Shown piece after piece: positions 3,733 to 42,013 of a stretch of DNA of 64,000 nucleotides. The position numbers and the translations under genes are program-made. The notes below the pieces were generated by a model that saw nothing but the letters and a program-made list of their open reading frames with translations, had not been told where the DNA came from and did no database searches. Source of the DNA: an uncultured Methanosarcinales archaeon (GTDB taxonomy: Archaea; Nanobdellota; Nanobdellia; Woesearchaeales; ARS49); NCBI GenBank assembly GCA_964353335.1, contig CAYGVI010000003.1:130695-194694 (forward strand), written 5' to 3'. Numbering within the stretch: position 1 is the first letter of the stretch; every line of letters starts with the position of its first letter.

Positions 3733-4070
3733 GCCTGAAATACCTTGCAGGAGCAGTAATTGCAGTCCTTGCCCTTACAACTTACTTTTCAGGCAGTATT
3801 TCAGAAGGATTCATACTCGGCATCTCCCTGATAATGCTTGGGCTGATTCCAGGCTACACTTTGCTTACTTTCCTCATGAAAGACCTTGAAGAGCTTGAAA
3901 AAACAATACTGGGATTCTTCATTGGCATCTGCTCAACTGCAATGCTGTTGTACTACCTTAATTTCATCGGCATTGCAAGCATAAAGCCAGTATTCAGCTA
4001 TGGCATTGGAATAATCTGCCTTGCTTTGCTCGCGGTAAAAAAGTTTAAACAGCCAAAAAAGGTGCAATAA
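3723..4070 (+). CDS. small membrane protein (PGYTL motif), paralog of 1060..1413
   Basis: 115 aa, 3-4 TM; same position relative to a GT-C gene as 1060..1413. Confidence 0.5.
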   Translation: MHMSLKYLAGAVIAVLALTTYFSGSISEGFILGISLIMLGLIPGYTLLTFLMKDLEELEKTILGFFIGICSTAMLLYYLNFIGIASIKPVFSYGIGIICLALLAVKKFKQPKKVQ

Positions 4071-5134
4071 TGTACCAGACAAGAACAATATTCAAGCCGT
4101 TTCTGCTTTTGACTGACATAATTGGCTATGTTTTTTTCTTCTGGCTCAAGTTCAGAAGGGTTCCAGAGCCTAAAAAGATTCTTTGCATTAGGATTGACCA
4201 CATTGGAGACGTGCTTCTCACAACCCCTGCATTCAGGGCTCTTAGAAAGCGCTATCCAAAGGCAAGGATTGATGTGCTTGTGCGCTCTTTTTCAAAAGAA
4301 ATACTTGACGGCAACAAAAACATCAGCAAAATTCTCACTTTTGACTTTCCCTGGCTTGGCTTGCACGGCAAAAAAGCATCCTGGAAAGAAACAATTAGCT
4401 TCATAAAACAGCTAAGAAAGGAAAAATATGATATCGCCATTGATTTCCACGCAGACCCGAGGAATATCTGGCTCGCAACAAAGGTCGCAAAGTACAGGAT
4501 TGGATATGGAATACGCGGATTTGGCTTCCTACTAAACAAAGTAGTGCCTTACAAGCCAGCAAGACACCAGATTCAGAGAAATTTTGACCTTGTCCGCGCG
4601 CTTGGAGCCAATGCAAGCCAAGAAATGGATTTCATAATCCCTGCATCTGCAAAAACAAAGGCAAAATCACTTCTCAAGCAGGCTGGAAATGCAAAACTTG
4701 TTGGAATTACTCCAGCAACAGGAAGAAAGCCAAAATACTGGCTTAATGAACGCTGGGCGCAGGTTGCCGATGCACTTGTTGACAAATATGGAGTAAAAAT
4801 AGTGCTTACAGGCGGAAAAGGAGATGCTAAAGACATTGAAGAAATAATCAGCAATATGACCCACAAAGAAAATATCATAAATCTTACAGGAAAAACATCG
4901 CTGAAAGAGCTTGGGGCAGTTATCCAGCAGTGCAGTCTCTTCCTAAGCCCTGACACAGGCCCTGCTCACATTGCAAGAGCGCTGAATGTTCCGCTACTTG
5001 AGCTCTTTGGCCCTGAAAATCCAAAGCAGTGGGGCTATAACGAGCCAAAGTTCAGGCACATAAAAAAAGACAAAATGGAAGACATAACAACAGAAGACGT
5101 AATTTCTGCAGTCAAACAAATGAGAGCGCTTTAA
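4070..5134 (+). CDS. GT9 family glycosyltransferase (ADP/GDP-heptose heptosyltransferase, RfaF/WaaC-like)
   Basis: ILCIRIDHIGDVLLTTPAFRALRKRYP...GITPATGRKPKYW...LTGKTSLKELGAVIQQCSLFLSPDTGPAHIA: canonical GT9 heptosyltransferase motifs. Confidence 0.85.
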   Translation: MYQTRTIFKPFLLLTDIIGYVFFFWLKFRRVPEPKKILCIRIDHIGDVLLTTPAFRALRKRYPKARIDVLVRSFSKEILDGNKNISKILTFDFPWLGLHGKKASWKETISFIKQLRKEKYDIAIDFHADPRNIWLATKVAKYRIGYGIRGFGFLLNKVVPYKPARHQIQRNFDLVRALGANASQEMDFIIPASAKTKAKSLLKQAGNAKLVGITPATGRKPKYWLNERWAQVADALVDKYGVKIVLTGGKGDAKDIEEIISNMTHKENIINLTGKTSLKELGAVIQQCSLFLSPDTGPAHIARALNVPLLELFGPENPKQWGYNEPKFRHIKKDKMEDITTEDVISAVKQMRAL

Positions 5135-20035: not shown

Positions 20036-20553
20036 AAAAGCTTAATGTTGGCTGCGGAAATGACATAAAGCAAGGATGGACTAATCTTGATTTCAAACGC
20101 ATTTCAGGGGTTGATGTTGTCCAGGATATCAACAAGACCCCCTGGCCATTCAAGGCAAACTCATTTGATGAAGTATTATGCCAGGATGTGCTTGAGCATT
20201 CAGATGATGTCATCTCTGTTATGAATGAGATTCACAGGATTCTCAAGCCAAATGGAATTGTTCTCATCAGAGTTCCTCATTTTACAAGCGCAGGAGCATT
20301 CACTGACCCGACCCACAGGCACTTTTTCGGTTGGGGCTCATTCAATTATTTCCAAAAAGCGAGCAAATATCATTATTACGCAGATTTCTCTTTTGAAATT
20401 GTAAAAAGGAAGCTTGAGTTCGGCAAAAAGTTTGCAATATGGAATTGGCTTGTTCAACCGTTAGTTAACCTTATGCCAATGGTTTATGAAAGTACGCCCC
20501 TGAGGATATTCCCTGCAATGAACCTTCACTTTGCCCTGCGCAAGCCAAAGTGA
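20032..20553 (+). CDS. class I SAM-dependent methyltransferase (Methyltransf_11)
   Basis: MKKLNVGCGND...LKPNGIVLIRVPH. Start at ATG 20032 overlaps the upstream stop (ATGA); the track ORF 19939 start gives a 97-nt overlap. Confidence 0.75.
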   Translation: MKKLNVGCGNDIKQGWTNLDFKRISGVDVVQDINKTPWPFKANSFDEVLCQDVLEHSDDVISVMNEIHRILKPNGIVLIRVPHFTSAGAFTDPTHRHFFGWGSFNYFQKASKYHYYADFSFEIVKRKLEFGKKFAIWNWLVQPLVNLMPMVYESTPLRIFPAMNLHFALRKPK

Positions 20554-22025
20554 GATGCAATCCAAGCGATTTCTTCCCTGCTGACGATTTTCAGCGCAAG
20601 CAAAAGCAGGCAGTATGCAATTCCGCCTGCAAAAGCGCCGATAGCAAGTTCAATCCACGGGTTTAATGACAGCAATGCCTTTACCCCTGAAATTATTCCT
20701 GCAAGGATTATTGCTGCAAGAAGTGTCTTTGCCCAGACCACCCATGGCTCGCGGATTCTCAAAATCCGTCTTATTCCGCGCGAACTAAGCGCAAGCATGA
20801 GCAAATAGCTGAGCGATGTTCCGCAGGCAGCGCCGATTATGCCAAAACGCGGGACAAGCGCGAGATTAAGAATTACATTTGCAACTGCTGAAATGAGCAT
20901 TATTGTTGTGGTGTATTTGGGCCTGCCAAGGCCGAAAAGCGCATTAAGGTTTGTGTAAGCAATAGAGTAAAGCACCATGCCACCCGCAAGAATCTGGAGT
21001 GCAGGCGCTGAATTGATGAATTTGTCCCCAAAAAACAGCCTGATAAAAATTTCAGGGAATGCAATAAGAACCACTGCCATTGGAATTATTGCAATAAACA
21101 CATACTTGTGCAGGAATTCTATTCCTTTTCTCAATTGAATCCGCTTTTTTAGCGCGAGCAGTTCTGATATCAGCGGTGTGGCAACTGCAGATACTGAATA
21201 CGCAACATAAAGCACAAGCCCTGCAAGAGGCGCCGCAACCTGATAAAGTCCGACGCTTGCCAGGTCCTTGAAATAACTGAGCATTAGTGTGTCTGTGTAT
21301 TGCAGGACATTATTGCCGAAAATTGTAAGCATTGCCGGAAGCCCGAAAAGGATAAGGCGGGAAAAGTCCTGTCCTGCAAGCAGTGCGTGCGCTTTCCAGA
21401 ATTGTTTGAACACTTTTTTTGTGAACAGGAAGAAAAAGAACAAAAATACAACCACATACATTATCAGGTAAGCCCAGACCGGTGCAAGAATGCCAAAACC
21501 AAGCCATAAAAGCACAAAAGAAATTGCAAGCACAACAAGGTTTCTCGACAGGTCCTGCAATGAATAAAGAAACATCCTTTGGAAACTCTGTAATCCAATA
21601 GAAACAACATTTTGGGCAAAAGAAACAAAAAATATTATGGCAAATAAAATCAATAATTTGGTATCGCTTGTGTGAAAGAATGTAGGCATTATTTGAGGGG
21701 CAAATGTTATCAGCAGGAATGCAATGATTGCTGAGGAAAACAACTGTATAAGGAAGCTTGATGAAATCAGCGATTTTATCCTGTTCCAGTCTTTTTTGAC
21801 AATAAGCTCTGGAATGAATTTCAGCAGTGCATATCCCTGCCCAAGGTCCTTGAACAAGACCAGCAGGTTTATGAAAGAAAATAATGCGAAGAAAAGCCCG
21901 TAGTCTTCAATGCTGAGTTTCCTTGCGAGCAAAAACCTGAGAAAATACGCGGACAATGCCGCCATAAGTGTAAGAACAAAGACAGTTGCTGCGCCATGAA
22001 GCGCTTTTTTTGCATAAGACACCAT
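20526..22025 (-). CDS. Wzx/MOP-family polysaccharide flippase
   Basis: 499 aa, about 14 TM; typical polysaccharide biosynthesis protein C-terminal architecture. Confidence 0.8.
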   Translation of the reverse strand: MVSYAKKALHGAATVFVLTLMAALSAYFLRFLLARKLSIEDYGLFFALFSFINLLVLFKDLGQGYALLKFIPELIVKKDWNRIKSLISSSFLIQLFSSAIIAFLLITFAPQIMPTFFHTSDTKLLILFAIIFFVSFAQNVVSIGLQSFQRMFLYSLQDLSRNLVVLAISFVLLWLGFGILAPVWAYLIMYVVVFLFFFFLFTKKVFKQFWKAHALLAGQDFSRLILFGLPAMLTIFGNNVLQYTDTLMLSYFKDLASVGLYQVAAPLAGLVLYVAYSVSAVATPLISELLALKKRIQLRKGIEFLHKYVFIAIIPMAVVLIAFPEIFIRLFFGDKFINSAPALQILAGGMVLYSIAYTNLNALFGLGRPKYTTTIMLISAVANVILNLALVPRFGIIGAACGTSLSYLLMLALSSRGIRRILRIREPWVVWAKTLLAAIILAGIISGVKALLSLNPWIELAIGAFAGGIAYCLLLLALKIVSREEIAWIASHFGLRRAK

Positions 22026-22061
22026 GCACCCAAGTCCGTGAATATGCTATATAAAGATTAT

Positions 22062-22258
22062 GGACGACCACAACATTTTAAAACAGGGTCTGGCTTGCCT
22101 TCAGTCGTGGAAGAGCAGCCAAAGAAAGTGTGGAACTGGCAAGTCAAGGCAGCCATTATTGCAGTTATACTGTATCTCGGGGTTGCGCTGTCCTTGTACA
22201 TGAAGCTAAAGCACCTGCCCGGGCCTTATTATGGCGGAGACCTTTATGCCCACCATGG
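22062..22258 (+). repeat. direct repeat copy L (truncated 5' fragment of gene 26747..28540), about 95% identical to 26768..26964
   Basis: Nucleotide identity visible directly (ggacgaccacaacattttaaaa ... tttatgcccaccatgg). Encodes GRPQHFK..VEEQPKKVWNWQVKAAIIAVILYLGVALSLYMKLKHLPGPYYGGDLYAHHG, then diverges and stops. Confidence 0.85.
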
Positions 22259-22408
22259 GTTTTGTGCTTGAAAAAATCTGTGTAGTAATGGCAGGTGGAT
22301 CCTGCGAATCAAGGGTGATTTAACACATTTAGCTTTTTAGCCGTTGCTGATCATTTGCCTGTCAGCAAAGCAAGCGTTACTGCTTATTTATGCAAATCGC
22401 ATAGAAAA

Positions 22409-23092
22409 CTATCTTTTAATAATCATACATTGAGACATGGGTAATTGAATAATTTGTTCATTTTTGTCTTTAAAAAATTCATCAAACGCTTTTTTAACGC
22501 CTTGGGCATGATAATCGTGTGAGATGATTATGCCACCTTTTGACATTTTATCATAAAAAAATTCAAGGCAATCTTTTGTGCTTTTGTAAATATCTACATC
22601 CAGATGTACAAAAGCGAATTTTTTGTTTTGAATGAAATTGCCTGTTTCTGGAAACAGTCCTTTATAAATGTGGACATGGGGATATCTTTGTAGTTTATGT
22701 TTGACTTTTTGAAAGTCAGACTTCCACATTTTTGTCTTGTATTTTGTATCTATTTTATCAACTTCGGGCAGCCCTTCGAATGTGTCAAATAGATGCAACT
22801 GTTTATTGCCTTTCGATTCACATATTGCTTTTGCAGTCGCACCCTTGAATACACCAACCTCTGCATAATCCCCCTCGATACTTGTTTGGTTTTTTGCAAA
22901 GGAATAAACAAAAAATAATTCGCTCGGTTTCAATAAAAATGGGCGGTCCTCGCTAATTATTTGTTTCATTAAATTCATTGTTTTTTTATCATGATAATAT
23001 CCCATGAATTTAAATTCAATACTTGAGAATAAACGCTGAATTGCAAATCCTATGGGGGATCTGCTTATTCTATCAATAAATTTTTGCATCAT
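22409..23092 (-). CDS. TylF/MycF-like (macrocin O-methyltransferase family) sugar O-methyltransferase
   Basis: AEVGVFKGATAKAI ... FVHLDVDIYKST ... GGIIISHDY: class I MTase of the TylF/CmcI type; AT-rich gene. Confidence 0.65.
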   Translation of the reverse strand: MMQKFIDRISRSPIGFAIQRLFSSIEFKFMGYYHDKKTMNLMKQIISEDRPFLLKPSELFFVYSFAKNQTSIEGDYAEVGVFKGATAKAICESKGNKQLHLFDTFEGLPEVDKIDTKYKTKMWKSDFQKVKHKLQRYPHVHIYKGLFPETGNFIQNKKFAFVHLDVDIYKSTKDCLEFFYDKMSKGGIIISHDYHAQGVKKAFDEFFKDKNEQIIQLPMSQCMIIKR

Positions 23093-23201
23093 ATTTTTAA
23101 TAATATCGAAATGGTTTTAAAGCTTTTCTTTTGCCGGGTGAAAAGTCATCAAAAGGTCTTGTGGCAAGCTGAATCCCAAGAGCGATGTTGTTTGGGGCAA
23201 T

Positions 23202-23927
23202 TTACTTATTGTAAACCCCCCTTAAATCGTTCATTCTTATTTTCACAATATCTCTGCCATTATGGGTTATGTTCCCTATCGCAGTGAAATTGCTTGAGTC
23301 AGAATCTATCCATGTGATGGGCACTTCTTTGATATGAAAACCGAATTTTTTTGCGAGATATAGAAGTTCGACATCAAATGCGCCGTCCCTGATTGTCTGC
23401 TTCTCAAAAATAACCCTGCAATGTCTCTTGAACATCTTAAATCCGCACTGGGTGTCCTTTATCTTCATGTTTAATATCAACCGTTTCCAGAAGGAAAAGC
23501 CCCTGCTAAGAACCATCTTGAAAAACTTCCTTTCTATTTTTGATTCCTTGAGCGCTCTTGATGCAATAAGGATATCATAGTCATCAATAATTTCCAGGAA
23601 TTTGTTAACTTCGCATAATGGGGTGCTTAAATCATTGTCATAAAACAGGATAAGGCCGTATTTTGCCTGCATTGCCCCTGCCCTGACTGAAAACCCCTTT
23701 CTCAGGCGTTCCTGGTTGACTATCAGCTTCAGCTCCTTGTTTTTTGAAAGGTGCTTCTGAATTGTGCTGATTGTCTGGTCTCCTGAGCGGTCAGCGACAA
23801 AGATAATCTCAAAATTGCCAATTAGCGGGTTGTTCCTGAAAAAGAACAGAGATTCTATGATGCACCGCTCAACACGCTTTTCTTCCTTGTATACCGGAAC
23901 AACAACAGATATATCGTGCTTTTTCAT
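23202..23927 (-). CDS. GT2 glycosyltransferase
   Basis: ISVVVPVYKEEKRVERCI..IFVADRSGDQT; AT-rich. Confidence 0.8.
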   Translation of the reverse strand: MKKHDISVVVPVYKEEKRVERCIIESLFFFRNNPLIGNFEIIFVADRSGDQTISTIQKHLSKNKELKLIVNQERLRKGFSVRAGAMQAKYGLILFYDNDLSTPLCEVNKFLEIIDDYDILIASRALKESKIERKFFKMVLSRGFSFWKRLILNMKIKDTQCGFKMFKRHCRVIFEKQTIRDGAFDVELLYLAKKFGFHIKEVPITWIDSDSSNFTAIGNITHNGRDIVKIRMNDLRGVYNK

Positions 23928-23993
23928 TGATGATATGCCCTTGGGAATCCTTTATAAAATTATCCCTTTTTGGCAGGGGAAGAAAAATCAGGC

Positions 23994-24980
23994 TTAAATT
24001 TCATGGCCGCCGAGATAAACAATTCTTGAACCTTCAGGGTCAAATGCGAATTTAATCTCGCGCAGGGGCAGGCTTTCCCTAAGCTTCTGCTGTTTGTCCT
24101 TGTCGCAGTAAAGCAGCAGGAACCCGCCGCCGCCTGCGCCCAGCAGCTTTCCGCCTGTGGCGCCTGATTCAAGGGCTTTTTTGTAATAAGCGTCAATGAT
24201 GTCATTGGATATTCCCGATGCAATCTCTTTTTTCAGCAGCCAGCCTTTGTTAAGTATTTCCCCGAATGATGAAAGGTCGCCGCCAGTGAGGGCATCGCGC
24301 AGTTCAAACACCAAATCACGCATTTTACACAGCTTCAGCCATTTTTCCTGTTTGAGAGTCTCTTTTTTCTGTTCAGTCAGGATTGTCCGCGACTGGCGCG
24401 TGATTCCTGTGTAAAAAAGCACAAGGTTGTCCTCAAGCGCTTTTTTTGTTTCATCCGGGATTTTGATCGGCTCCACAGCAACACTGCCGTCAGGATTGAA
24501 CCTTATCACATTAAGGCCGCCGAGCGCACAGGCATATTGGTCCTGTTTTCCAATAGGCTCCTTAAGCTCATCAATCTCAATCTCGCACGCCTCTTTTGCA
24601 AGAGTATGGTTTTCCTTGTTCTCATTGAGCGCGGTATAAAGCGCCTTGAGCAGACCGACAGTAAATGCTGATGATGACCCCAAGCCTGTTCCTGACGAGG
24701 GAATATCTGCAAAACTTGCCATTTCCAAAGGCATCTTGTTCTTTGTTTTCAGGAAGCACTGCCTTATGAGGGGGTGCTGTATCTCCTGCGCATCCTTGAT
24801 AAGCTCTGTCCTTGCGTATTTCAGCAGGATATTGTCCTCAAACTGCCTGTTTACTGCAATGTACATGTATTTTTTGATTGTTGTGGACAATACTGTCCCC
24901 TGCTCTTTCTCATAAAATTCCTTCAGGTCAGTTCCGCCGCCTGCAAAACTAATGCGGAATGGGGTTTGTGTGACAATCAC
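23994..24980 (-). CDS. hddA: D-glycero-alpha-D-manno-heptose 7-phosphate kinase (GHMP kinase)
   Basis: MIVTQTPFRISFAGGGTDL..., GHMP kinase motif PLEMASFADIPSSGTGLGSSSAF. Sits in an operon with a nucleotidyltransferase and next to a GmhB-like phosphatase. Confidence 0.75.
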   Translation of the reverse strand: MIVTQTPFRISFAGGGTDLKEFYEKEQGTVLSTTIKKYMYIAVNRQFEDNILLKYARTELIKDAQEIQHPLIRQCFLKTKNKMPLEMASFADIPSSGTGLGSSSAFTVGLLKALYTALNENKENHTLAKEACEIEIDELKEPIGKQDQYACALGGLNVIRFNPDGSVAVEPIKIPDETKKALEDNLVLFYTGITRQSRTILTEQKKETLKQEKWLKLCKMRDLVFELRDALTGGDLSSFGEILNKGWLLKKEIASGISNDIIDAYYKKALESGATGGKLLGAGGGGFLLLYCDKDKQQKLRESLPLREIKFAFDPEGSRIVYLGGHEI

Positions 24981-25714
24981 GTTTTCACCTTTCCTGTCCG
25001 CAGGTCATTCTCTGCCTCTTTTAACCTTTCGGCAGTTCCGATGTCTTTTAGGTATTCTGTGGTGTAATATCCGTAGACCTTGAATTTGTTCTTAACCAGC
25101 GATGGAAGGATATCTTTTCCAAAATCAAAACTGCCTGATTCCGGAATCAGTGAGAAGCATTCGGGGTTAAGTATGTACAATGCCGCATTGGTGATGTTGC
25201 CGTAATCCGCATTTCCCGGCTTGTGCACAAGCTTTTCAACTTCGCCTGACTTGTTCATTATCACCACGTCGCTGTCTTCAGGGTGGCGTGATTCGTGCAC
25301 GACCAGTGTTGCCTGCGCACCGCGCTCAAAATGGAAATCAATAATTTTTCTCAGGTCAATGTTAATCAGCACATCGCCGTACAAGACCACAACAGGCTGT
25401 TTTTCCTTCTCAAGGTGCTTTAATCCGCCGCAGGTCCCCATTGGCTCTTTTTCTACAAAATATTCTATTGCGCAGTTGAAGCGCCCGCCGTTTCCAAAAT
25501 AATCCTCGATTTTTTTTGAAAGATATCCTGTTTTCAACAGAAACCTTGAAAGCCCGTTTTTCCTTGCATGCGACAGGATGTGCTCAAGGATTGGCTTTCC
25601 AAGCAGGTCAATCATTGGTTTTGGCTTGTCAGTTGCAATACCCTGCAGCCTTTTCCCAACTCCTCCTGCAATAATGACCGTTTTAATGTCGCCCAGCGGA
25701 ATATCCATTCCCAC
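24977..25714 (-). CDS. hddC: D-glycero-alpha-D-manno-heptose 1-phosphate guanylyltransferase (NTP_transferase)
   Basis: KTVIIAGGVGKRLQGIATDKPKPMIDLLGKPILEHIL: sugar-1-P nucleotidyltransferase signature; overlaps hddA by 4 nt. Confidence 0.75.
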   Translation of the reverse strand: MGMDIPLGDIKTVIIAGGVGKRLQGIATDKPKPMIDLLGKPILEHILSHARKNGLSRFLLKTGYLSKKIEDYFGNGGRFNCAIEYFVEKEPMGTCGGLKHLEKEKQPVVVLYGDVLINIDLRKIIDFHFERGAQATLVVHESRHPEDSDVVIMNKSGEVEKLVHKPGNADYGNITNAALYILNPECFSLIPESGSFDFGKDILPSLVKNKFKVYGYYTTEYLKDIGTAERLKEAENDLRTGKVKT

Positions 25715-25815
25715 ACCACCATCAATGCGTTACGTACTGTTGTTTTTAAATCTTATTAACTTATAGGGGAGGGAAATACGAAAGCTTAAAAGAGAAGGTC
25801 AACGTGTGATTGAAC

Positions 25816-26394
25816 ATGAACAGAGCAGTTTTCCTGGACCGTGATGGTGTCATTAACAGAAACCTTCCTAATCTGGTGAGCGAGAAACAGTTTGAATTGG
25901 TAAGTGATTCGGTGCCTGCAGCAGTAAAACGCGCAAAAGAGGCAGGATACCGTGTAATTATTATAACAAATCAGCCTGTAATTGCAAAAGGCTTCTGCAC
26001 AAGGGAGGATGTTGAGCGCATACACGAGCATATGAAATCAATTCTTGCAGCAAAAGGTGCGCGTATTGATGCAATCTATGTCTGTCCGCATCATCCTGAG
26101 AAAGGTTTTGCTGGCGAGGTTAAGGCGCTCAAAATAGACTGTGACTGCCGCAAGCCAAAGCCAGGGCTGATACTTCAGGCGGCAAAAGAGCACCAGATTG
26201 ACCTGGGCAATTCCTGGATGATTGGCGACTCTGTTGTTGATGTTGCGGCGGGCAAGGCAGCAGGAGTAAGAACAATACTTCTGGCCGGAAGCGAAAATGG
26301 CAGCAAGGATGAAAAGCGCATAACTGCAGTCCCTGATTTTCAAGCCATTGACATTAATGAAGCGGTTTCTATTGTGCTGAACAATCATACATAA
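25816..26394 (+). CDS. gmhB: D,D-heptose 1,7-bisphosphate phosphatase (HAD, histidinol-phosphatase family)
   Basis: AVFLDRDGVIN (HAD motif I) and the GmhB zinc motif CPHHP...CDCRKPKPG. Confidence 0.85.
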   Translation: MNRAVFLDRDGVINRNLPNLVSEKQFELVSDSVPAAVKRAKEAGYRVIIITNQPVIAKGFCTREDVERIHEHMKSILAAKGARIDAIYVCPHHPEKGFAGEVKALKIDCDCRKPKPGLILQAAKEHQIDLGNSWMIGDSVVDVAAGKAAGVRTILLAGSENGSKDEKRITAVPDFQAIDINEAVSIVLNNHT

Positions 26395-26426
26395 TCTTTA
26401 AATACGTTCTCTGTGAGTTTTATTGC

Positions 26427-26648
26427 ATGGCCACAAGCTCAGCATGCCTTGTTGTCTGGAATGGCGAGGATGAGATACGCGGATGCCTAGAAAGCATAAA
26501 GAAAGTTGTTGACGAAATTATAGTTGTGCATGACGGTCCATGCAGTGACAGGAAGAAGGTTGATGAAAGACAGCAGCACGAAGAAAAGACAATAATCCTC
26601 AATGCTCAGCCTGCGGGCAAGCATCAGCCTGAACACTTACGCTGCTAG
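26427..26648 (+). pseudogene. N-terminal fragment of a GT2 glycosyltransferase (truncated)
   Basis: ACLVVWNGEDEIRGCLESIKKVVDEIIVVHDGPCSD resembles a GT2 N-terminus, but the ORF ends after 73 aa with unrelated sequence. Confidence 0.45.
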
Positions 26649-26746
26649 CGCTGCAAGAAGCAAAAGGACCAACAATGTTGCCGTGAAGCGCTCGGCAGGT
26701 ATATGAAACCATATTCTAATTGCCGTTCACACAATATATACCGAGT

Positions 26747-28540
26747 ATGGATAAGGCGTGCAGCTTCGGACGACCACAACATTTTAAAATAGGGTCTGGC
26801 TTGCGTTTGGCTGTGGAAGAGCAGCCAAAGAAAGTGTGGAACTGGCAAGTCAAGGCAGCCATTATTGCAGTTATACTGTATCTCGGGGTTGCGCTGTCCT
26901 TGTACATGAAGCTGAAGCACCTGCCCGGCCCTTATTATGGCGGCGACCTTTATGCCCACCATGGATTTGCGCTCAACTACATGGCAAACGGTTTCTGGAG
27001 CGACCCGTATTTCATCAATAATTACTCATTTTATCCCTGGCTTGGCAACTACATATTCATCGCGCTCAACCTTTTGCCAGGCATAACTGTGTTAAAGGCT
27101 GAAATGTTTGTCGGGCTTGCCACAACAATACTCTCAGCAATTGCATATTATTTTCTTGGAAGGCAGCTTTTCAAGAGCGACACCTGGGCGCTTGTGCTTA
27201 TGCTCTTCTCGCTTGTCACAAGAGGGATTCCTGACGGCGCGCCCAACCTTGTGCCATGGATGATTACGATTCCTTTCTGGTTTGCCTTCTGGCTCAAGGC
27301 AGAGGAAACAGGAAAACTGCGCGACAAGGCTCTTGCAGGATTGTTCATGGGCCTTACAAGCCTTGCCCACGTGGCATTTTTTCTTGCGGGAATGGCGGTT
27401 TTTGCTTTTACAGCAGTGGTTGAGACTTTAAAGCAGAAAGACAAGAAGCAAGCAGTTGTTGCCGCGTTCAGGCTGTATGCTCCAATGCTCATAGTCGGAT
27501 TTTTCGTGTCCCTACTGTTCTATGGACCGATAATTATCAATTATCATGCAAAGACCCTTAACCCGCTTTTCCAGTACAATGGCACTGACATTGACAACCT
27601 TGGAATTGGCTGGGTGATCAAGACGCTTTGGAACGCGACACTTAACTTTTCCTCAATTCCCGCCGCAGTCCTTAGCATACTCAGCATTATCGGGCTTGTG
27701 GTCTGCATGATGAACTGGAACAAGAAAGCGCCAAGATATGCTGTGCTTTGGTATATCGCAGGCTTTCTTGCGCCGCTGCACCACATTATCACAAGGCCTT
27801 TGCTTGGCAGGTGGATACTTCCATCACACCTCTTTGCGCTTGCCCTTCCATTGCTGATATTCGCAGTCTACGGTGTCCGCGCTGTTGAACAGTTCGCAGC
27901 CAGAAAATCCCCCAATTCGAAGCGCATTGTCGCGATTGGAGTCATAATCCTTGTGCTCCTCCTGTTCTGGCAGCGCTATAATGACTACAATGCAAATCCA
28001 TGGGTGCAGTTTGGCCAGCGCCTTGACCCTTCAACACAGGCATGGATGTCATTTGGGGTGTGGATGGAGAAAAACACAGGCATTAATGACGTTGTGCTGA
28101 GCAATGACGAGACATGCTTTGCGATGAACGGCATGAGCGGAAGAAAATGCGTATTTGTGCGCAGGACTCACGCGAACTACTTTGTTGATGTTGAGCAGAG
28201 GTATGCAGACGGAGTTGTGATGCTCTATGGCAACAACAGCGCTTTGACAAGCAGGCTTCTTGGCGATTACAAGGTGGACTATGTGCTTATTGACGCATAC
28301 ATGCAGCAGCAGCCTGTGCTTTTGGACGCGAAGTTTGAACAGTATTTGCTTGATAACAATGTAACATTCACAAAGATACGCGAGCGCAAAGACCTTTCAG
28401 TCCCTGATGCAAAAGTGTTTGACCTTCTTGCTGTTCCTTTCCAGCAGATTAACAAGGCGCTTGAGTCAAAGCTCAGCCCTGCCACAGAAGCAAATATCGG
28501 CACACAGGCGTATCTCAAGCTGTACAGGATAAATAGGTAA
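26747..28540 (+). CDS. large polytopic membrane protein, putative GT-C-like glycosyltransferase/polymerase
   Basis: About 598 aa, >10 TM with soluble C-terminal region; N-terminal TM AAIIAVILYLGVALSLYM. The start (ATG 26747 or the GTG of VWNW) is uncertain. Confidence 0.5.
   Translation: MDKACSFGRPQHFKIGSGLRLAVEEQPKKVWNWQVKAAIIAVILYLGVALSLYMKLKHLPGPYYGGDLYAHHGFALNYMANGFWSDPYFINNYSFYPWLGNYIFIALNLLPGITVLKAEMFVGLATTILSAIAYYFLGRQLFKSDTWALVLMLFSLVTRGIPDGAPNLVPWMITIPFWFAFWLKAEETGKLRDKALAGLFMGLTSLAHVAFFLAGMAVFAFTAVVETLKQKDKKQAVVAAFRLYAPMLIVGFFVSLLFYGPIIINYHAKTLNPLFQYNGTDIDNLGIGWVIKTLWNATLNFSSIPAAVLSILSIIGLVVCMMNWNKKAPRYAVLWYIAGFLAPLHHIITRPLLGRWILPSHLFALALPLLIFAVYGVRAVEQFAARKSPNSKRIVAIGVIILVLLLFWQRYNDYNANPWVQFGQRLDPSTQAWMSFGVWMEKNTGINDVVLSNDETCFAMNGMSGRKCVFVRRTHANYFVDVEQRYADGVVMLYGNNSALTSRLLGDYKVDYVLIDAYMQQQPVLLDAKFEQYLLDNNVTFTKIRERKDLSVPDAKVFDLLAVPFQQINKALESKLSPATEANIGTQAYLKLYRINR
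26768..26964 (+). repeat. direct repeat copy R (inside the 5' end of gene 26747..28540)
   Basis: About 95% identical to 22062..22258. Confidence 0.85.
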
Positions 28541-28584
28541 TCCATAAGCTTTTTAAGCATCCTGCAAGGAGCACAAATAGAAAA

Positions 28585-29631
28585 ATGGCACAAAAACAAC
28601 TTACATTCCTTATTACCGGCGGGGCAGGATTTCTCGGCCACAACCTTGCACGATATCTGTTAAAGAAAGGCTGCAAAGTAAGGACAGTTGACCTGGGTGA
28701 TTTTGATTATCCTGACATAAAGGGAGTACAGCACTTCAAGGGGGACATAAGAAACAAGGAAATACTGCGAAAGGCAGCAGCAGGTGTGGACAGTATTGTG
28801 CACGCAGCTGCAGGACTGCCTTTATGGAAGCCCGCTGAAATACGCTCTGTCAACATAAACGGCATCAAGGCAGTATTTGCTGTTGCTGAGGAGCTTGGAA
28901 TTGAGCGCGTTGTGCACATCTCAAGCACTGCTGTTTACGGAATCCCTGACCACCATCCTCTTTACGAAAATGACAGGCTTGTGGGAGTCGGTCCATATGG
29001 CGAGAGCAAGGTTGCTGCTGAAAAAATTGCAGAATCTTTCAGGAACAGGATGTGCGTCCCAATCCTCAGGCCCAAATCATTCATTGGCGCAGGGCGCCTC
29101 GGCGTATTTGACGTTCTTTTTGACTGGGTAAGGCGCGGAAAAAACATTCCAATGGTCGGCTGGGGAAACAATCTCTACCAGCTTTTGCATGTTGAGGATT
29201 TGAACCAAGCAATCTGGCTTGCATCAACAAAGCCGGCGAAGATTGCGAATGACACTTTCAATGTCGGCGCTGAAAAATTCAGCACAATGAAAAAAGACTA
29301 TCAGGCATTGCTCAACTATGCAGGCTTTCACAAGCGCGTGATAGGGACTCCGCCCTGGCTTGTGATTAACACTCTCAGGATTCTTGAAAAGCTCAAGCTC
29401 TCGCCCTTGTACAGGTGGGTTTATGAGACAGCTGATAAGGATTCTTTTGTTTCGATAGACAAAGCAAAGAAAGTGCTCGGCTTCAGGCCAAAGTACAGCA
29501 ATGTTGATGCCCTGATTGACAGCTACAAGTGGTATTTGCAGCACTACAAGGAATACCAGGGCAAAACAGGAGTCACGCACAGGGTTCCTTGGAAGCAGGG
29601 CATCCTGTCCATAGTAAGATGGTTTTTCTAA
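28585..29631 (+). CDS. NAD-dependent epimerase/dehydratase (extended SDR)
   Basis: ITGGAGFLGHNL (GxxGxxG) and YGESK (YxxxK). Confidence 0.85.
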   Translation: MAQKQLTFLITGGAGFLGHNLARYLLKKGCKVRTVDLGDFDYPDIKGVQHFKGDIRNKEILRKAAAGVDSIVHAAAGLPLWKPAEIRSVNINGIKAVFAVAEELGIERVVHISSTAVYGIPDHHPLYENDRLVGVGPYGESKVAAEKIAESFRNRMCVPILRPKSFIGAGRLGVFDVLFDWVRRGKNIPMVGWGNNLYQLLHVEDLNQAIWLASTKPAKIANDTFNVGAEKFSTMKKDYQALLNYAGFHKRVIGTPPWLVINTLRILEKLKLSPLYRWVYETADKDSFVSIDKAKKVLGFRPKYSNVDALIDSYKWYLQHYKEYQGKTGVTHRVPWKQGILSIVRWFF

Positions 29632-30560
29632 TGCGGAGAAATCATTTCTTTCGCATACTTTGAGCATGGTGAGTGCCAGGTTTTCCACATTGCTTCCCTG
29701 AATGGCGTGTACCTGACTCCAAACTCATCCCACCAGTTCTCAACAGCGAATTCGTCTCCTGCGACAAGAGCCCTCATCTGGTCTGGAGTAAAGACTGTCT
29801 TGCGGAAAACAAAGCTGTAAACCCGCAAAAGGAATCCGAAAAGCCACAATGGAAGCGGAATAAACAGCCTGTGCCATCCGCGTGTCTTTGCAATTATCCT
29901 TAGCAAATCAATGTATGGTATTTTTTCCCTGCCAATAATGTTATGAATTTTGTTCTCAGGCTTTCTTTTGGTCAGCTCAACAATCACATTGCACATATCA
30001 TTGACAAACAAGGGCTGCCTCACATATTTTCCAGAGCCAGGCACAGGGACTACTGGTATTTTTTCCATAAAACGGGTTATCCAGCCAAGGTGTTTTGCAT
30101 CAAAGCAGCCAAACATCAGCGGCGGCCTCAAAATTGTGTGCGGAACCCTGCTCTTGTGCACAAGCTCTTCGCCAATGCGCTTTGTCCTTGTGTATTCGTC
30201 TTTTGCGACAGAGATGACAACAGATGAGCTTATGTGGATTAGGTTCTTCACATTGTACTTTTTGCAGAGCTCAAGCACATTGCTGACTCCTTCAATGTTG
30301 CTTCGTTCAAAAGGCGCGGATGACTGCGCCGCGATTTGCGCGTGAAGCTCAATAACACAGTCAGCGCCTTCAAATTCCTTTTCCCACTTTCCAGGATAAC
30401 TGACATCTGTCTGGACGCAGTTTACTTTCTTGTTAAGGCGCTGCAGGAGATTTATGTTTGAATTCCGGTCTATTGCGGTTATTTTGTATCCCTGCCTGAC
30501 AAGCATTGGCATCAGATTCTGCCCTACAAGCCCTGCTGCTCCTGTGACAATTACTTTCAT
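29628..30560 (-). CDS. NAD-dependent epimerase/dehydratase (extended SDR)
   Basis: VTGAAGLVGQNL and YTRTK catalytic motif. Confidence 0.8.
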   Translation of the reverse strand: MKVIVTGAAGLVGQNLMPMLVRQGYKITAIDRNSNINLLQRLNKKVNCVQTDVSYPGKWEKEFEGADCVIELHAQIAAQSSAPFERSNIEGVSNVLELCKKYNVKNLIHISSSVVISVAKDEYTRTKRIGEELVHKSRVPHTILRPPLMFGCFDAKHLGWITRFMEKIPVVPVPGSGKYVRQPLFVNDMCNVIVELTKRKPENKIHNIIGREKIPYIDLLRIIAKTRGWHRLFIPLPLWLFGFLLRVYSFVFRKTVFTPDQMRALVAGDEFAVENWWDEFGVRYTPFREAMWKTWHSPCSKYAKEMISPH

Positions 30561-31828
30561 TTTAAGTCCTCGAGGACATATTGCGCTGCTTTTTCTCCGC
30601 TGTCAAGCGCGACGTCCATGTTCCTTATCTTTGGAAATGTCACCTGGATTCCTGCATTGTACAATCCTGCGACAGGTGTCCTGTATTTTGGCGCGTACTT
30701 TGCGTAGTCCTTGTCATAAATCGGCTCTGCATACTTGTCTTTGAAAACAAGGCAGAACTTCACGTCCATTTTCGGGAAGTATTTTCTCAGGACGCCCAAA
30801 TAGAGGTCCTTGATTTCCTCGTCTGACTTTGGCAAATCCTCTGCAGAGCCGCCATAGCGGTCAACCCATGTGATTTTTGTTTTGTACCTGTCTATAAGCA
30901 AGGAGTGCTGGTACATCACGTGCACGCGCTCGCCAAAGAAATTTATCCAGTAATTTTCAGGGTCAAGGTAATCTTTTGTGCCAAACAATATTCCGACAAC
31001 AGGAGTATAATGCAGTTTTTTGATGTCATCAGCATATTCTTTTGGCAGTCCTTTTGTGAAATGCGCAAATTCCTGCACAGGGATTGTGTTAATTAGAGCG
31101 TCATAGACCTCTGTGTGCTCTTTTCCGCCAACTTCGTATGTTATGACCTTTTTCTGGACATTCAGGCTGGTTGTTTCTGCCTTCCTGATGATTTTTCCGC
31201 CCTTTCTCAGCACATCCTGCTCAAGCCCGTCAATAACTCCCTGTATTCCGCGGGTTGGATATGTGAATTTGTCATTGAACTCGCGCTCTTTCATCCTGTT
31301 CGCAAACTGCTTTGCAGAAATCTGGCTCAACGGAATGTTGAATTTGTTCCTCGCATACAATTGGTAGTGCATTTTTTGCGTTACAGACTTTCCGCATGCC
31401 TTATTCAGCCAGGTTTCTGCGTCAAGATCATCAGGAAGCTTGTCTGGGTTGAAGAGATAAGAGACATAAAGCCCGAAAAGGCCGAACCTTATCTTGTCAA
31501 TAAGATTCAGATAATTGAACCTGAGATATTTCCAGGGCTTATTTATGTTGTAAACCCTGTTTTTCCACGCGATTGCAAGATTGATGCGCTTCCAAACATT
31601 ATTGCCGAGCAAATCATACCGCTTCAGGTACTCGAGCGTCTTTTTGTTTGTGCGGACAATGTGATGGTTGAAAATTGGTATCTGCTCGCCATCAACCTCA
31701 ACGCTTCTCGCAAGCCCGCCAAGGAAAGGCATTTTCTCAAGTATTGTAACCTCTGCCTTTCCGGAATCAAGCAGTTTGTCTGCTGCTGCAAGGCCTGACA
31801 ATCCCCCCCCAAGTATGATGGCTCGCAT
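30557..31828 (-). CDS. Rossmann FAD-dependent oxidoreductase (amine-oxidase/PPOX/Glf-like)
   Basis: ILGGGLSGLAAADKL dinucleotide-binding motif at the N-terminus; 423 aa. Confidence 0.7.
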   Translation of the reverse strand: MRAIILGGGLSGLAAADKLLDSGKAEVTILEKMPFLGGLARSVEVDGEQIPIFNHHIVRTNKKTLEYLKRYDLLGNNVWKRINLAIAWKNRVYNINKPWKYLRFNYLNLIDKIRFGLFGLYVSYLFNPDKLPDDLDAETWLNKACGKSVTQKMHYQLYARNKFNIPLSQISAKQFANRMKEREFNDKFTYPTRGIQGVIDGLEQDVLRKGGKIIRKAETTSLNVQKKVITYEVGGKEHTEVYDALINTIPVQEFAHFTKGLPKEYADDIKKLHYTPVVGILFGTKDYLDPENYWINFFGERVHVMYQHSLLIDRYKTKITWVDRYGGSAEDLPKSDEEIKDLYLGVLRKYFPKMDVKFCLVFKDKYAEPIYDKDYAKYAPKYRTPVAGLYNAGIQVTFPKIRNMDVALDSGEKAAQYVLEDLK

Positions 31829-31880
31829 GGATTTACCGATTAGTGAAGAATTTATAAAACTATCGTAGTTATCGTCGGAA

Positions 31881-31943
31881 ACACAAGCAGCGGCCGACGG
31901 AGTCGTCCCGCTTGTGCTTCGCTCAGCACAAGCTTAATAAACC
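31881..31943 (+). repeat. about 60-nt promoter-proximal repeated element, copy A (upstream of ubiA-like gene)
   Basis: agcggccgacggagtcgtcc..gctt..hairpin..gcacaagcttaataaa; compare copy B. Confidence 0.6.
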
Positions 31944-31963
31944 CTCCGCCTGTCGCAAAACAC

Positions 31964-32827
31964 ATGGCAATCATTGATTACGTAAAAGTGCTCAGGCCTT
32001 TGCAGTGGTACAAGAATTTGCTTGTCTTCCTGCCGCTCATATTTGTAGGCAGGCTTATGGAATTGAACCTTGTCTGGCTGGCATTTCTCGGATTTGTGAG
32101 CCTTTGCCTGTGCGCCTCATTCAACTACATCATAAATGACATTGTTGACAGGAAAAAAGACAGGGCGCACCCTGAAAAGCGCACAAGGCCGATTGCCGCA
32201 GGAAAAATTTCAGTAATCACAGCGCTCATTTGGGGAATTTTACTGCTTGCTGCGGGGCTTTATCTTGCGTTCAGTCTTAACAGGAATTTCTTTTACGCAG
32301 CAGGATTTATTGTTGTTCTCACACAGATGTACTCATTCCTCCTGAAGAGGATTGCATTTGCAGACATTCTTACTGTCGCGATTAATTTTGTAGTTCGCGC
32401 AATATCCGGGGCGTTCATTATCGGTGTAATTATTTCACCCTGGCTTGTGCTTTGCACGTTCTTTTTTGCGCTTTTCCTGCTTTCCGGAAAGCGATACGCA
32501 GACCTTGCCCTACTTGGCTCAAAGGCTGCAATGCACAAGGAAACACTCAAAGTTTACACAAAAGAGGTCGCAAACGCATTAATGATTGTTGCAACTGCAT
32601 TGCTGATTGTTGCATACGGCGCTTTTGCACTGCTCGGAACCCACCCTCAGCTCGCATTTTCCCTTCCTTTTGCCCTGTTTGTAATTTTCAGGTATTTCTC
32701 ATTGATTTATGTGGGCTCGCCAATCGCGCGCCATCCAGAGCTTGTTTTCAGGGACTGGAAAATGCTTGTTGGAATGCTCCTCTGGGCAATTGCAACATTT
32801 ATTGCGCTGTATGTTTATCCGAAATGA
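31964..32827 (+). CDS. UbiA-family prenyltransferase resembling decaprenyl-phosphate phosphoribosyltransferase (DPPR synthase)
   Basis: NDIVDRKKDRAHPEKRTRPIAAG: this NDxxDxxxD..HPxKRxRPIAAG signature is the one recalled for Rv3806c-type phosphoribosyltransferases, not the DGGGP-synthase signature. About 8 TM. Confidence 0.7.
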   Translation: MAIIDYVKVLRPLQWYKNLLVFLPLIFVGRLMELNLVWLAFLGFVSLCLCASFNYIINDIVDRKKDRAHPEKRTRPIAAGKISVITALIWGILLLAAGLYLAFSLNRNFFYAAGFIVVLTQMYSFLLKRIAFADILTVAINFVVRAISGAFIIGVIISPWLVLCTFFFALFLLSGKRYADLALLGSKAAMHKETLKVYTKEVANALMIVATALLIVAYGAFALLGTHPQLAFSLPFALFVIFRYFSLIYVGSPIARHPELVFRDWKMLVGMLLWAIATFIALYVYPK

Positions 32828-32832
32828 AAATT

Positions 32833-32896
32833 CCGCAATCAGCGGCCGACTTAGGTCGTCCAGCTTCCGCTGAGGCGCAAGCTTTATAAAGCACCC
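32833..32896 (+). repeat. about 60-nt promoter-proximal repeated element, copy B (upstream of 5S rRNA, contains its TATA)
   Basis: agcggccgacttaggtcgtcc.gctt..hairpin..gcgcaagctttataaa. Confidence 0.6.
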
Positions 32897-32907
32897 ATAG
32901 TGTTTTC

Positions 32908-33024
32908 TCCTCGGACGGTCATAGGGGCCTGGTCCCACCCGATCCCATTCGAACTCGGCAGTTAAACCGGCCTCCGTACCCGACTGTACTGCATTACGCG
33001 GGAACTCGGGTAAGCTGTCCACCT
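32908..33024 (+). rRNA. rrf: 5S ribosomal RNA (standalone)
   Basis: Terminal helix ggacgg/ctgtcc, conserved loop CGAAC.CGG.AGTTAAAC and GTACTG motifs, TATA tttataaa about 25 nt upstream, T-run after the 3' end. Confidence 0.7.
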
Positions 33025-33115
33025 TTTTTATTTCATTAATAAACTACTCCAATTAACGGGCGCTTACAGCGCCAGAGACACAACGATTCCTGGAAGTTCT
33101 TTTAAGAAAACAAGT

Positions 33116-34195
33116 TTAAATCTCAACAACAATATCCGCAGTCGCCTCATTTATCTCAAGAATTTGCGAGAACTTCGCTTTTACTTCCTTCCAACTGAGT
33201 TTTTTCTTTGCCTCGACTATTTCATCGAGCAATTTCTTGATTTCCTGATAGTGCTCGTAAATGTATTCGCCTTTTTTGCGCTCTTCCACTGATTTTTGTT
33301 CAAGCTGCGCCAGGTTCTGCTGCTGGACTGCTATCATTGTCTCAACTTTCTGCAGCTGCGTGCTTGTCGGAGCGAGCTTCTGCTCCTTCACAGCTTCTGC
33401 AGGAAGGGCAAATATCCTGTCAAGTGCGCTGCCAAAGCTTTCAACATTCTCCCTTTTCTTGGCAGAATAGCAGTCAAATGGTATTGGAGTTGCGTCAGAG
33501 ACAATGCTTCCTTCGTAAATCAGCTGAGGAGATATTTTTTTCACAAGAAGTTCGTGCAAAATGCGGAAAATGTCATCTGCGTGCTCTTTTTTCACAGGCT
33601 CTGCAGCAGGAATTCCGCATCGTACGCAAAGCTCTTCTGCCAAAACCTTGCCCAAGCCGAACTGGACAGCCAAAGTCTTTGAAATATTGTCCTTGCTCTC
33701 TGCGAATTTCTCTGCGAATTCCCGTGAGTCAAGGTGGAATGTGTCAATGCTTTTGGGCAATTGATAAGCCTTGCCGCGCTGCACCCTGTCATTAAGCGCT
33801 AGCACAGTAATCACAATGCCTTCTCCGTCGCAAAGCACAACATTTCCCCTTCCAAACACCTCTAGATACAGGATAAACTGCTTTTCAGACCTTGTTACGT
33901 GTATTGCGATTATCCTTTCAGAACAAACCTGCTCTATTTTGCTTATCCTGCTGTTTCCTATCAGTTTCCTTAGCTGGGCTGCAAAGGGATGTATCTGTTC
34001 TGGCGTCGCAGGCCTTTGAAGCGGAGTCCAGCACTTGCCTGGCCCTGCCTGGAGCATTATTTTCACGCCAAAAGTGATAAGGATTCCGCGGTCTTCGAGA
34101 ACATAAATCTTGTCAAGCCTCTCATTTGCCAATGGCTGAAGCTCTTGCAAAAGAAAATGCAGGTCAAAAGCGGTTATTTCGGTTTTCATCATCAT
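33116..34195 (-). CDS. NFACT-N domain protein (Rqc2/NEMF/FbpA N-terminal homologue), short form
   Basis: MKTEITAFDLHFLLQELQPLANERLDKIYV matches the NFACT-N N-terminus; followed by coiled coil, but the gene ends without an NFACT-R domain. Confidence 0.55.
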   Translation of the reverse strand: MMMKTEITAFDLHFLLQELQPLANERLDKIYVLEDRGILITFGVKIMLQAGPGKCWTPLQRPATPEQIHPFAAQLRKLIGNSRISKIEQVCSERIIAIHVTRSEKQFILYLEVFGRGNVVLCDGEGIVITVLALNDRVQRGKAYQLPKSIDTFHLDSREFAEKFAESKDNISKTLAVQFGLGKVLAEELCVRCGIPAAEPVKKEHADDIFRILHELLVKKISPQLIYEGSIVSDATPIPFDCYSAKKRENVESFGSALDRIFALPAEAVKEQKLAPTSTQLQKVETMIAVQQQNLAQLEQKSVEERKKGEYIYEHYQEIKKLLDEIVEAKKKLSWKEVKAKFSQILEINEATADIVVEI

Positions 34196-34566
34196 GCTCT
34201 GCCAAGTCCTATCAGCACAACACCAAGCAGTATCCAAGCGATTCCAATCCACTTGCTCCTGTTCATCTTTTCATTAAGCATTTTTGTGGACCACAGGCAG
34301 GTCCATATGTACGTGACAGATGTGATTGGGTAAAGAACTGAAAGCTCGCCATGCCTGAGCCCCCATACAAAAAATATTGCTGAAATGCCGAAAAGCCCAC
34401 ACCCTATTATTGCATTGTAGTTTTTCAGGATAATCATTGGGTTCTTGAGTATTTTTATCGGGTTAATCGTGAATTTTTCAGCGCCTTTTTTCATGAAAAT
34501 AGGTCCAAGTGCTCCTATTAGCGTTCCCAAAAGAACAAGCCCTACTCCAAGCAAGTCAGTAGTCAT
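34192..34566 (-). CDS. EamA/DMT 4-TM half-transporter (ArnE/ArnF-like)
   Basis: 124 aa, 4 TM; pattern VLYPITSVTYIW...GIAWILLGVVLIG as in ArnE/ArnF. Confidence 0.65.
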   Translation of the reverse strand: MTTDLLGVGLVLLGTLIGALGPIFMKKGAEKFTINPIKILKNPMIILKNYNAIIGCGLFGISAIFFVWGLRHGELSVLYPITSVTYIWTCLWSTKMLNEKMNRSKWIGIAWILLGVVLIGLGRA

Positions 34567-37562: not shown

Positions 37563-37613
37563 TATATCACCGACGAAGAGAGTATATGGTCACTTTTTAA
37601 AGCTTGCGTACCA

Positions 37614-42006: not shown

Positions 42007-42013
42007 TTGCAAA

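Follow-up and report, generated by a model that had tools for sequence, protein, structure and literature searches.

The window analysed here, a stretch of 64,000 nucleotides of contig CAYGVI010000003.1 from an uncultured archaeon placed in the Woesearchaeales, holds a glycan locus in which two copies of a direct repeat bracket a block of methyltransferase, glycosyltransferase and heptose-pathway-like genes. We propose that this repeat is probably a recombination scar in a strain-variable slot of a surface-glycan locus, left by an inter-strain event in which one end was joined by homology and the other illegitimately, similar to what is known as homology-facilitated illegitimate recombination (HFIR). 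The left copy of the repeat, B', lies beside wzx1, a gene for a Wzx-type flippase, and the right copy, B, belongs to a membrane-protein gene that we call memb.

A repeat search and self-BLASTN agreed on a single direct repeat, 22062-22262 and 26768-26968, of 201 nt and 95.0% identity (10 mismatches, 0 gaps), which with E=4.8e-87 is the sole non-trivial self-match in the 64 kb; the spacing between the copies is 4706 bp. A first-pass annotation, made from the letters of the window, had placed a direct repeat of ~95% identity at 22062..22258 and 26768..26964, and self-BLASTN confirms it, with those coordinates being 4 bp short at the 3' end. The same annotation took the right copy for the genuine 5' end of memb and the left copy for a truncated orphan, and both assignments hold. 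B' contains the predicted core promoter of memb (ACCACAACATTTTAAAA, 22067-22083) and its reading frame enters foreign sequence past codon 52, ending two codons later with a stop at 22269-22271.

The evidence that the DNA between the copies is foreign to this position comes from four comparison loci containing both wzx and memb, namely L001, L011, L015 (Logan SRR32827935) and L020 (GCA_038884575.1); the closest loci derive from DPANN metagenome-assembled genomes (MAGs) labelled Nanoarchaeia or Woesearchaeota. In all four a wzx gene on the opposite strand directly adjoins memb, with nothing between them, and thus the intervening DNA in the window is the product of an insertion or an exchange, in agreement with the earlier proposal of homologous or illegitimate recombination. 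The gene order of L020 is that of the DNA to the left of the repeat, here named cluster A (MT173, PMT555, MT236, GT2, PMT_2 and further genes out to AsnB); its alignments are continuous up to window position 22272 and restart at 26768, and their overlap of ~208 bp in L020 is the duplicated segment. L015 is a close relative, with memb DNA 90.5% identical, and shows the order GT2a(-), gmhB(-), hddC(+), hddA(+), GT2b(+), MT'(+), MT''(-), PMT_2(+), wzx2(-), memb(+). Window positions 26554-28552 correspond to L015 16259-18261 in direct orientation, and the heptose genes of L015 sit beyond an intact wzx2, in the opposite orientation to those of the window. L015 has complete versions of the genes that are cut short at the breakpoints of the window, whose arrangement is therefore the derived one.

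The repeat starts exactly at a border between hypervariable and conserved DNA, within the intergenic region. Compared pairwise, the four lineages are only 61-71% identical in their wzx 5' ends, and the adjoining 201 bp are 91-96% identical among B, B' and L011; likewise, wzx alleles are 56-67% identical in amino acids versus 90-95% identity in DNA for memb alleles. This is the pattern expected where a variable region meets a conserved flank. Beyond the repeat start, only weak upstream homology (~54-66% identity) links the two sites, covering the intergenic DNA and the wzx 5' ends, and a sliding-window comparison showed that identity changes stepwise along the locus. The nearest homolog of wzx1 outside this genome, P0002, is only 67% identical in amino acids; in L020 it lies immediately next to memb. 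The set of genes between the conserved flanks, a GT9 heptosyltransferase gene on the left and memb on the right, differs in L001, L015 and L020, and the distance between these flanks ranges from direct adjacency in L002 (4198-7052) and L014 (8923-11737), which represent the 'empty' version of the slot, through 3.9 kb in L001 to 21.7 kb here.

The features of the slot are the following, with positions in the window:
4070..5134, plus strand: GT9 heptosyltransferase gene, conserved left border of the slot (Pfam PF01075, 1e-38; NCBIfam heptosyltransferase III/I)
20526..22025, minus strand: wzx1, intact MOP/Wzx-type flippase gene, last of cluster A (Pfam Polysacc_synt/MurJ/MatE)
22026..22061, unstranded: IG1, intergenic, of the L020/L011 type, without the 19-bp segment of IG2
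22062..22262, plus strand: B', left repeat copy (orphan), with the memb core promoter, a GTG start at 22107 and 52 codons (one transmembrane helix)
22263..23167, minus strand: segment T, without homology to L015
22409-23092, minus strand: TylF/MycF-type sugar O-methyltransferase gene (Pfam PF05711, 1e-23)
23168..23201, minus strand: MT' remnant, 34 nt of a methyltransferase 5' end with the start codon lost (alignment with L015; BLASTN boundary)
23168-26553: segment H, the heptose block, inverted versus L015 and matching L015 11813-8429 reversed at 87.9%
23202-23927, minus strand: GT2b (Pfam/NCBIfam; 91% amino-acid identity to L015)
23994-24980, minus strand: hddA, HddA-like GHMP kinase gene (best NCBIfam match, 189 bits with a cutoff of 600; 96-97% amino-acid identity to L015)
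24977-25714, minus strand: hddC, HddC-like nucleotidyltransferase gene (82 bits with a cutoff of 300; 89% amino-acid identity to L015)
25810..26394, plus strand: gmhB-like HAD phosphatase gene, divergent from hddC (83% amino-acid identity to L015)
26427..26553, plus strand: GT2a' remnant, first 42 codons (126 nt) of a GT2 gene (37/42 amino acids identical to the L015 GT2a N-terminus)
26554-26767: segment W2, wzx2 5' end (159 nt) plus IG2, 214 bp
26554..26712, minus strand: wzx2' remnant, the 5' 159 nt of a second wzx allele, with the frame shifted by a deletion of 5 bp
26713..26767, unstranded: IG2, intergenic, of the L015/L001 type, containing the 19-bp segment GGATAAGGCGTGCAGCTTC
26768..26968, plus strand: B, right repeat copy, promoter and genuine 5' end of memb
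26813..28540, plus strand: memb (from its most likely start), right border of the variable slot, encoding a conserved multi-pass membrane protein of 576 aa whose C-terminal domain is soluble
Junctions: J1 at 22262/22263, J2 at 23167/23168, J3 at 26553/26554

As this list indicates, the 4.5 kb between the copies (22263-26767) is a patchwork of at least three fragments, T, H and W2, and not the one single cassette of the first-pass annotation; four gene remnants, B', MT', GT2a' and wzx2', stand at its junctions. The genes expected there (a TylF-like O-methyltransferase, a GT2, hddA, hddC and gmhB) were all recovered with Pfam and NCBIfam, and the part described as strongly AT-rich is segment T, with 33% GC versus 45% in the window. 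At J1 the similarity drops abruptly at 22262, with partial similarity to ~22272. The MT' remnant next to J2 translates to IAPNNIALGIQ, as compared to MDPHDISLGIQ in L015, where MT' comes after GT2b; the operon hddC-hddA-GT2b (23202..25714, minus strand) is inverted relative to L015. At the other end of segment H, J3 joins GT2a' and wzx2' head-to-head with a microhomology of at most 2 nt. GT2a is full length (262 aa) in L015 and L001, and the DNA of GT2a' is 80% identical to L001 7395-7241; a truncated GT2 N-terminus had been reported at 26427..26648, of which the part up to 26553 is correct and the rest is the antisense of the wzx2' remnant. The latter is about 92% identical to the wzx 5' end of L015 and about 66% to wzx1.

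The TylF gene itself, with 32% GC, has its nearest homologs (70-75% amino-acid identity) in MAGs of unclassified and Candidate Phyla Radiation (CPR) bacteria and of DPANN archaea, which hints at a cross-domain transfer among co-occurring episymbionts; the contexts examined (L017-L019) are unrelated.

The differences between the copies of the repeat give further indications of their origin. Six of the 10 fall in the 23-nt promoter spacer and just upstream, while the four coding ones are all synonymous third positions, so that the 52 amino acids of B' are identical to those of memb. B' reads C at 22084 and 22099, CA at 22102-22103 and TC at 22105-22106; in the coding part it has A at 22208, G at 22223, A at 22238 and G at 22259, where B has G, C, C and A. 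B carries the L011 state at 10/10 differing sites and B' has, at most of these sites, the state of one of the outgroups (L020, L015 or L001); at eight other sites B and B' agree against L011. On these patterns the copies look like alleles of two strains, each under purifying selection and with some inter-allele recombination, and they appear unlike a dead duplicate decaying in place; the simple target duplication suggested earlier is not what such allele-like differences would leave. As a whole B is 96% identical to L011 and only 60-85% identical to L015 over 26768 to about 27070, a tract that runs ~100 bp past the repeat end. Gene conversion from B' as the sole cause of this difference from L015 was rejected, the non-L015-like tract outrunning the repeat by that length.

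What is duplicated is a promoter together with the beginning of memb, and the start of this gene needed revision. The first-pass annotation had placed it at ATG 26747; this ATG is probably not the start, because a 19-bp indel among relatives (the right copy, L015 and L001 have the segment, while the left copy, L011 and L020 lack it) would shift its frame. GTG 26813, equivalent to 22107 in the left copy, is invariant in the relatives and most likely is the start of memb. A motif, ACCA(C/A)AACATTTTAAAA, is found 22-24 nt upstream of the conserved GTG GA(A/G) GA, and downstream of the indel, in both window copies, L001, L011, L015 and L020/L021. Archaeal promoters have a characteristic geometry of B-recognition element (BRE) and TATA box, on which our TATA-box assignments are based; by this measure TTTTAAAA would be the TATA box of a near-leaderless memb transcript, and its position suggests a leaderless, GTG-initiated memb mRNA. 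A TATA-like box, TTTATATA, lies on the minus strand at 22048-22055, 22 nt from ATG 22025, and is a putative promoter element of wzx1. The left edge of the repeat would thus fall between two divergent promoters, those of wzx1 and memb, whose predicted cores are only about 20 bp apart. No RNA gene or riboswitch was matched in Rfam at E<=0.1 in 21-28 kb, and a scan for sigma-70 promoters and terminators gave counts within ~1.3 standard deviations of the shuffled expectation, such a scan being uninformative for an archaeon.

Homologs of memb were found in 9 relatives, and its product had no match among Pfam, NCBIfam or PDB sequences. An hhalign comparison to a PMT_2 paralog was weak (33% probability) and a single-sequence AlphaFold2 model had a confidence (pLDDT) of 42 and was unusable; a GT-C-like nature of the protein is only a guess. 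At its other end, the window over 28311-28654 (the memb 3' end and the spacer before an epimerase gene) is 70-85% identical to L015 and L011, though these two are 94-97% identical to each other there, and this looks like another small recombination patch.

The event may be pictured as follows. The normal right-hand architecture of the slot is wzx (minus strand), compact divergent promoters (as predicted) and memb (plus strand), and in this genome two versions of the wzx-memb module would have been joined in tandem. The left version comprises cluster A, wzx1, IG1 and the first 201 bp represented by the repeat (memb promoter and 52 codons), and the right version the TylF piece, the inverted L015-like hddC-hddA-GT2b/gmhB block, the wzx2 stub, IG2 and the full memb. 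Donor DNA with its own memb 5' end would have replaced a short recipient stretch or, read the other way, would have ended inside the memb 5' end. Two directions appear to fit equally well: (a) a recipient with cluster A took up a patch of T, H, W2 and memb, anchored in memb; (b) cluster A, together with wzx1, IG1 and memb(1-156), entered a recipient that had T, H and W2, with the anchor farther to the left, and this could have rescued the loss of wzx2. In either direction the non-homologous end would have been joined at memb codon 52 (J1), and the memb 5' end would now be present twice because the transferred or retained DNA carried its own. Both compact promoters would survive, that of wzx1 in IG1 and that of memb in the right copy, and a plausible selective rationale is that only products keeping the wzx1 promoter together with a complete memb promoter and start work for both genes. 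J2 and J3 could have come about via earlier rearrangements, for instance a GT2a-wzx2 inversion and the replacement of MT' by TylF, or via a concatenated donor. A simple inversion of an L015-like locus alone was rejected, as it explains J3 only, the junction reciprocal to J3 is missing and what lies on the left is cluster A.

Some observations weigh against an inter-strain scar. Firstly, J2 and J3 need those earlier events or a concatenated donor, and a single event covers J1 only. Secondly, metagenome and genome scans with memb returned no genome with the predicted parental arrangement among the 9 memb relatives, nor a cluster-A strain with a full-length B'-type memb, nor the T-heptose patch beside another neighbour; in none of these relatives does the interval occupy the position that it has here. 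Thirdly, the copies share a perfectly identical core of 101 bp (22107-22207), which exceeds the length to be expected if the 10 differences were placed uniformly (p about 0.01-0.03), and gene conversion between the copies could be its source; the length of the core is mostly explained by the clustering of changes in the unconstrained spacer. Finally, it is the source assembly that gives the linear order across the core; k=31 Logan graphs break at the repeat.

Among the alternatives, an in-situ insertion with a true target duplication has to be weighed, and we consider it unlikely. In this case a 4.5-kb patch (22263-26767) would have entered a resident cluster-A locus, 201 bp of the target being copied by a replication-based or sister-chromosome mechanism, and the copies would later have diverged or been partly overwritten by inter-strain recombination. 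The stop of L020 homology at ~22272 and its restart exactly at 26768 would be expected, as would the switch of the right copy from L015-like to L011/B'-like exactly at the left end of the repeat, and a recent common origin or gene conversion would agree with the identical core of 101 bp. By contrast, the 10 differences are not random decay, given the synonymous coding changes, the complete agreement of B with L011 and the outgroup states in B', and additional inter-strain conversion events would be needed to produce them.

A second alternative, to which we give only a slight chance, is an assembly problem or a mixed population, in which a chromosome with wzx1 next to memb and a 4706-bp circular or tandem unit have been threaded into one path. 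The Logan assemblies of the runs ERR4334727 and ERR4334728 contain each of the four repeat flanks at 100% identity, and J1 (B' to T) is present in both, so that the repeat and J1 are not private to one assembly. Their contigs break off within the repeat, L006 at 22136, L007 at both of its ends (22178 and 26842) and L009/L010 at their beginning (26884), and such breaks are expected for k=31 graphs around a 101-bp identical core. The result in both is a two-in, two-out node, which fits the integrated order and also a chromosome with the deletion alongside a circle of 4706 bp. We favour the integrated order because an NCBI contig of 487,933 bp carries both wzx1 and hddA, because the unit is without a replication or integration gene, and because its wzx2 stub, though decayed, and its IG2 have the same order relative to memb as in L015, so that there must have been an integrated form; J1 is found in the reads of both runs. 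In run ERR4334727 the assembly of the interior is additionally split inside GT2b (23639-23666, ends of L008/L016, 28-bp overlap), where that of ERR4334728 is continuous; low depth or a minor variant may lie behind the split.

The first-pass annotation had also spoken of a glycan-diversifying switch, and the data fit a fixed historical recombination scar instead. We regard as very unlikely a programmed or frequent phase variation, with the repeats as substrate for recurrent excision of the heptose/methyl module and toggling of the glycan. It is true that the functional module is self-contained and stands between direct repeats whose perfect core measures 101 bp, that its deletion would restore the wzx1-promoter-memb arrangement seen in L020 and L011, and that the de Bruijn graphs are compatible with a deleted subpopulation. 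On the other hand, there is no recombinase and no evidence of a deleted form, loss would be irreversible, and the repeat is adequately explained as a by-product of recombination. Loss of the 4.7-kb unit through the repeat is possible, and we see a small chance that a recurrent pop-out varies the surface glycan from on to off, and that the promoter in B' drives either a 54-aa membrane peptide or a transcript antisense to TylF-GT2b-hddA-hddC; if so, co-existing cells of an episymbiotic archaeon would differ in surface glycan and the antisense transcript would tune the expression of the operon.

Hardly any credit can be given to a mobile element or integrative cassette with att-like direct repeats: the repeats do flank accessory genes, part of them with atypical GC, but the repeat is 201 bp of promoter and coding DNA, too long and, at only 95% identity, too imperfect (the target duplication of a transposon or insertion sequence is expected to be identical and only 2-15 bp long), the interior consists of truncated genes pieced together from a homologous locus, Pfam found no transposase or integrase domain in the open reading frames between the repeats (only methyltransferase, GT2, GHMP kinase, NTP transferase and HAD), no inverted repeats occur at 22263 or 26767, and no tRNA serves as target, the tRNAs of the window being at 42013 (the nearest), 49539 and 49711. 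On these grounds a mobile element was rejected, as the earlier remark that this is not a classical one had anticipated.

The proposed scar of inter-strain recombination is part of a large glycan cluster that extends from ~1.1 to ~30.6 kb, possibly to a UbiA-family gene ending at 32.8 kb, and includes genes for GT2, GT9 and PMT/PMT_2-like proteins, methyltransferases, a radical-SAM protein, AsnB, two Wzx-like flippases and epimerases. The second Wzx/Polysacc_synt-type flippase gene, at 8744-10207, lies within cluster A; with it the locus may build two different lipid-linked glycans, and it could have covered for the loss of wzx2. The window also encodes the archaeal proteins topoisomerase VI A and B, RIO kinase, ABCE1/RLI, HerA and a DnaG-type Toprim protein. 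Identity to L001 rises from 83% over 26553-34542 to 95% over 34841-37608, with the jump at ~34.6-34.8 kb, at the start of SecD/SecF; either the variable recombined region continues far past memb on its right, or the DNA of SecDF shows unusual conservation. Farther on, a gene at 62430-63485 (minus strand) encodes a 351-aa protein with a strong Pfam match to MATCAP (PF08014, 1.5e-50), a family named after a eukaryotic microtubule-associated tyrosine carboxypeptidase, and the family name is unexpected in a DPANN archaeon.

As for the product of the locus, GDP-D-glycero-alpha-D-manno-heptose is made by GmhA, HddA, GmhB and HddC, a pathway that serves the synthesis of S-layer glycans and capsules in bacteria. 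As in that pathway, HddA-, HddC- and GmhB-like genes are clustered here with glycosyltransferases, and a GT9 heptosyltransferase belongs to the same locus. Unlike in the pathway, all three proteins score below the NCBIfam equivalog cut-offs (for the gmhB-like product, PRK08942 at 159 bits with a cutoff of 178 and TIGR00213 at 144.5 bits with a cutoff of 149.6), and no SIS-domain GmhA (sedoheptulose-7-phosphate isomerase) was found among the large open reading frames of the window. Some HddA homologs elsewhere are SIS-GHMP fusions (P0044, P0046, P0047). The assignment to the heptose pathway is plausible but incomplete. The recombination would have combined a heptose and O-methyl decoration with the glycan of cluster A. 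In such organisms, contact with the host and recognition by viruses probably depend on the surface glycans. The repeat has a practical side as well: short-read assemblies break at the repeat, and the glycan-locus content of such MAGs can be mis-joined or lost.

It has been reported that HFIR was demonstrated experimentally in bacteria only, in Acinetobacter, Pseudomonas stutzeri, Streptococcus pneumoniae and E. coli conjugation (PMC3240628, PMC5361080), and it has been invoked for the orphan immunity-gene arrays in type VI secretion system clusters of Vibrio cholerae and for the orphan 3' ends of rhs and contact-dependent inhibition genes (PMC5361080). The locus described here resembles these cases in that a conserved stretch would have served as the homologous anchor, with the other end joined illegitimately, and in that an old module appears displaced, with orphan fragments beside the new one. 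It is unlike them in that the orphan is a promoter-proximal 5' fragment, and not a 3' end or an immunity gene, and in that the host is a DPANN archaeon, a group in which HFIR is not known from any experiment.

A second parallel is offered by the O-antigen clusters of Salmonella. In the galactose-initiated groups, wzx alleles show ~33% base differences in B1/D1, group D2 is a hybrid cluster generated by recombination of D1 and E, and the junctions contain wzy remnants, with a partial wzy duplication in D3 and some segments of atypical GC (PMC3715488). The present slot, with variable content between conserved flanks, divergent flippases, and remnants at which identity changes abruptly, has the features of a mosaic polysaccharide locus. 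The differences are the DPANN host, the flanks, which are GT9 and memb and not galF and gnd, and the junction, which has no insertion sequence or H-repeat. The lineage has been little studied, but the event is of an ordinary kind, with no new mechanism or element. Nevertheless, it documents at base-pair resolution a modular exchange between strains in a DPANN surface-glycan locus, in which L015-like and L020-like parental architectures, junctions and remnants can be identified. Like bacterial O-antigen and capsule loci, it has a variable block of sugar, glycosyltransferase and wzx genes between conserved flanks, divergent wzx alleles, hybrids, and junctions with remnants and partial duplications, which suggests that the same evolutionary logic operates in these episymbionts too.

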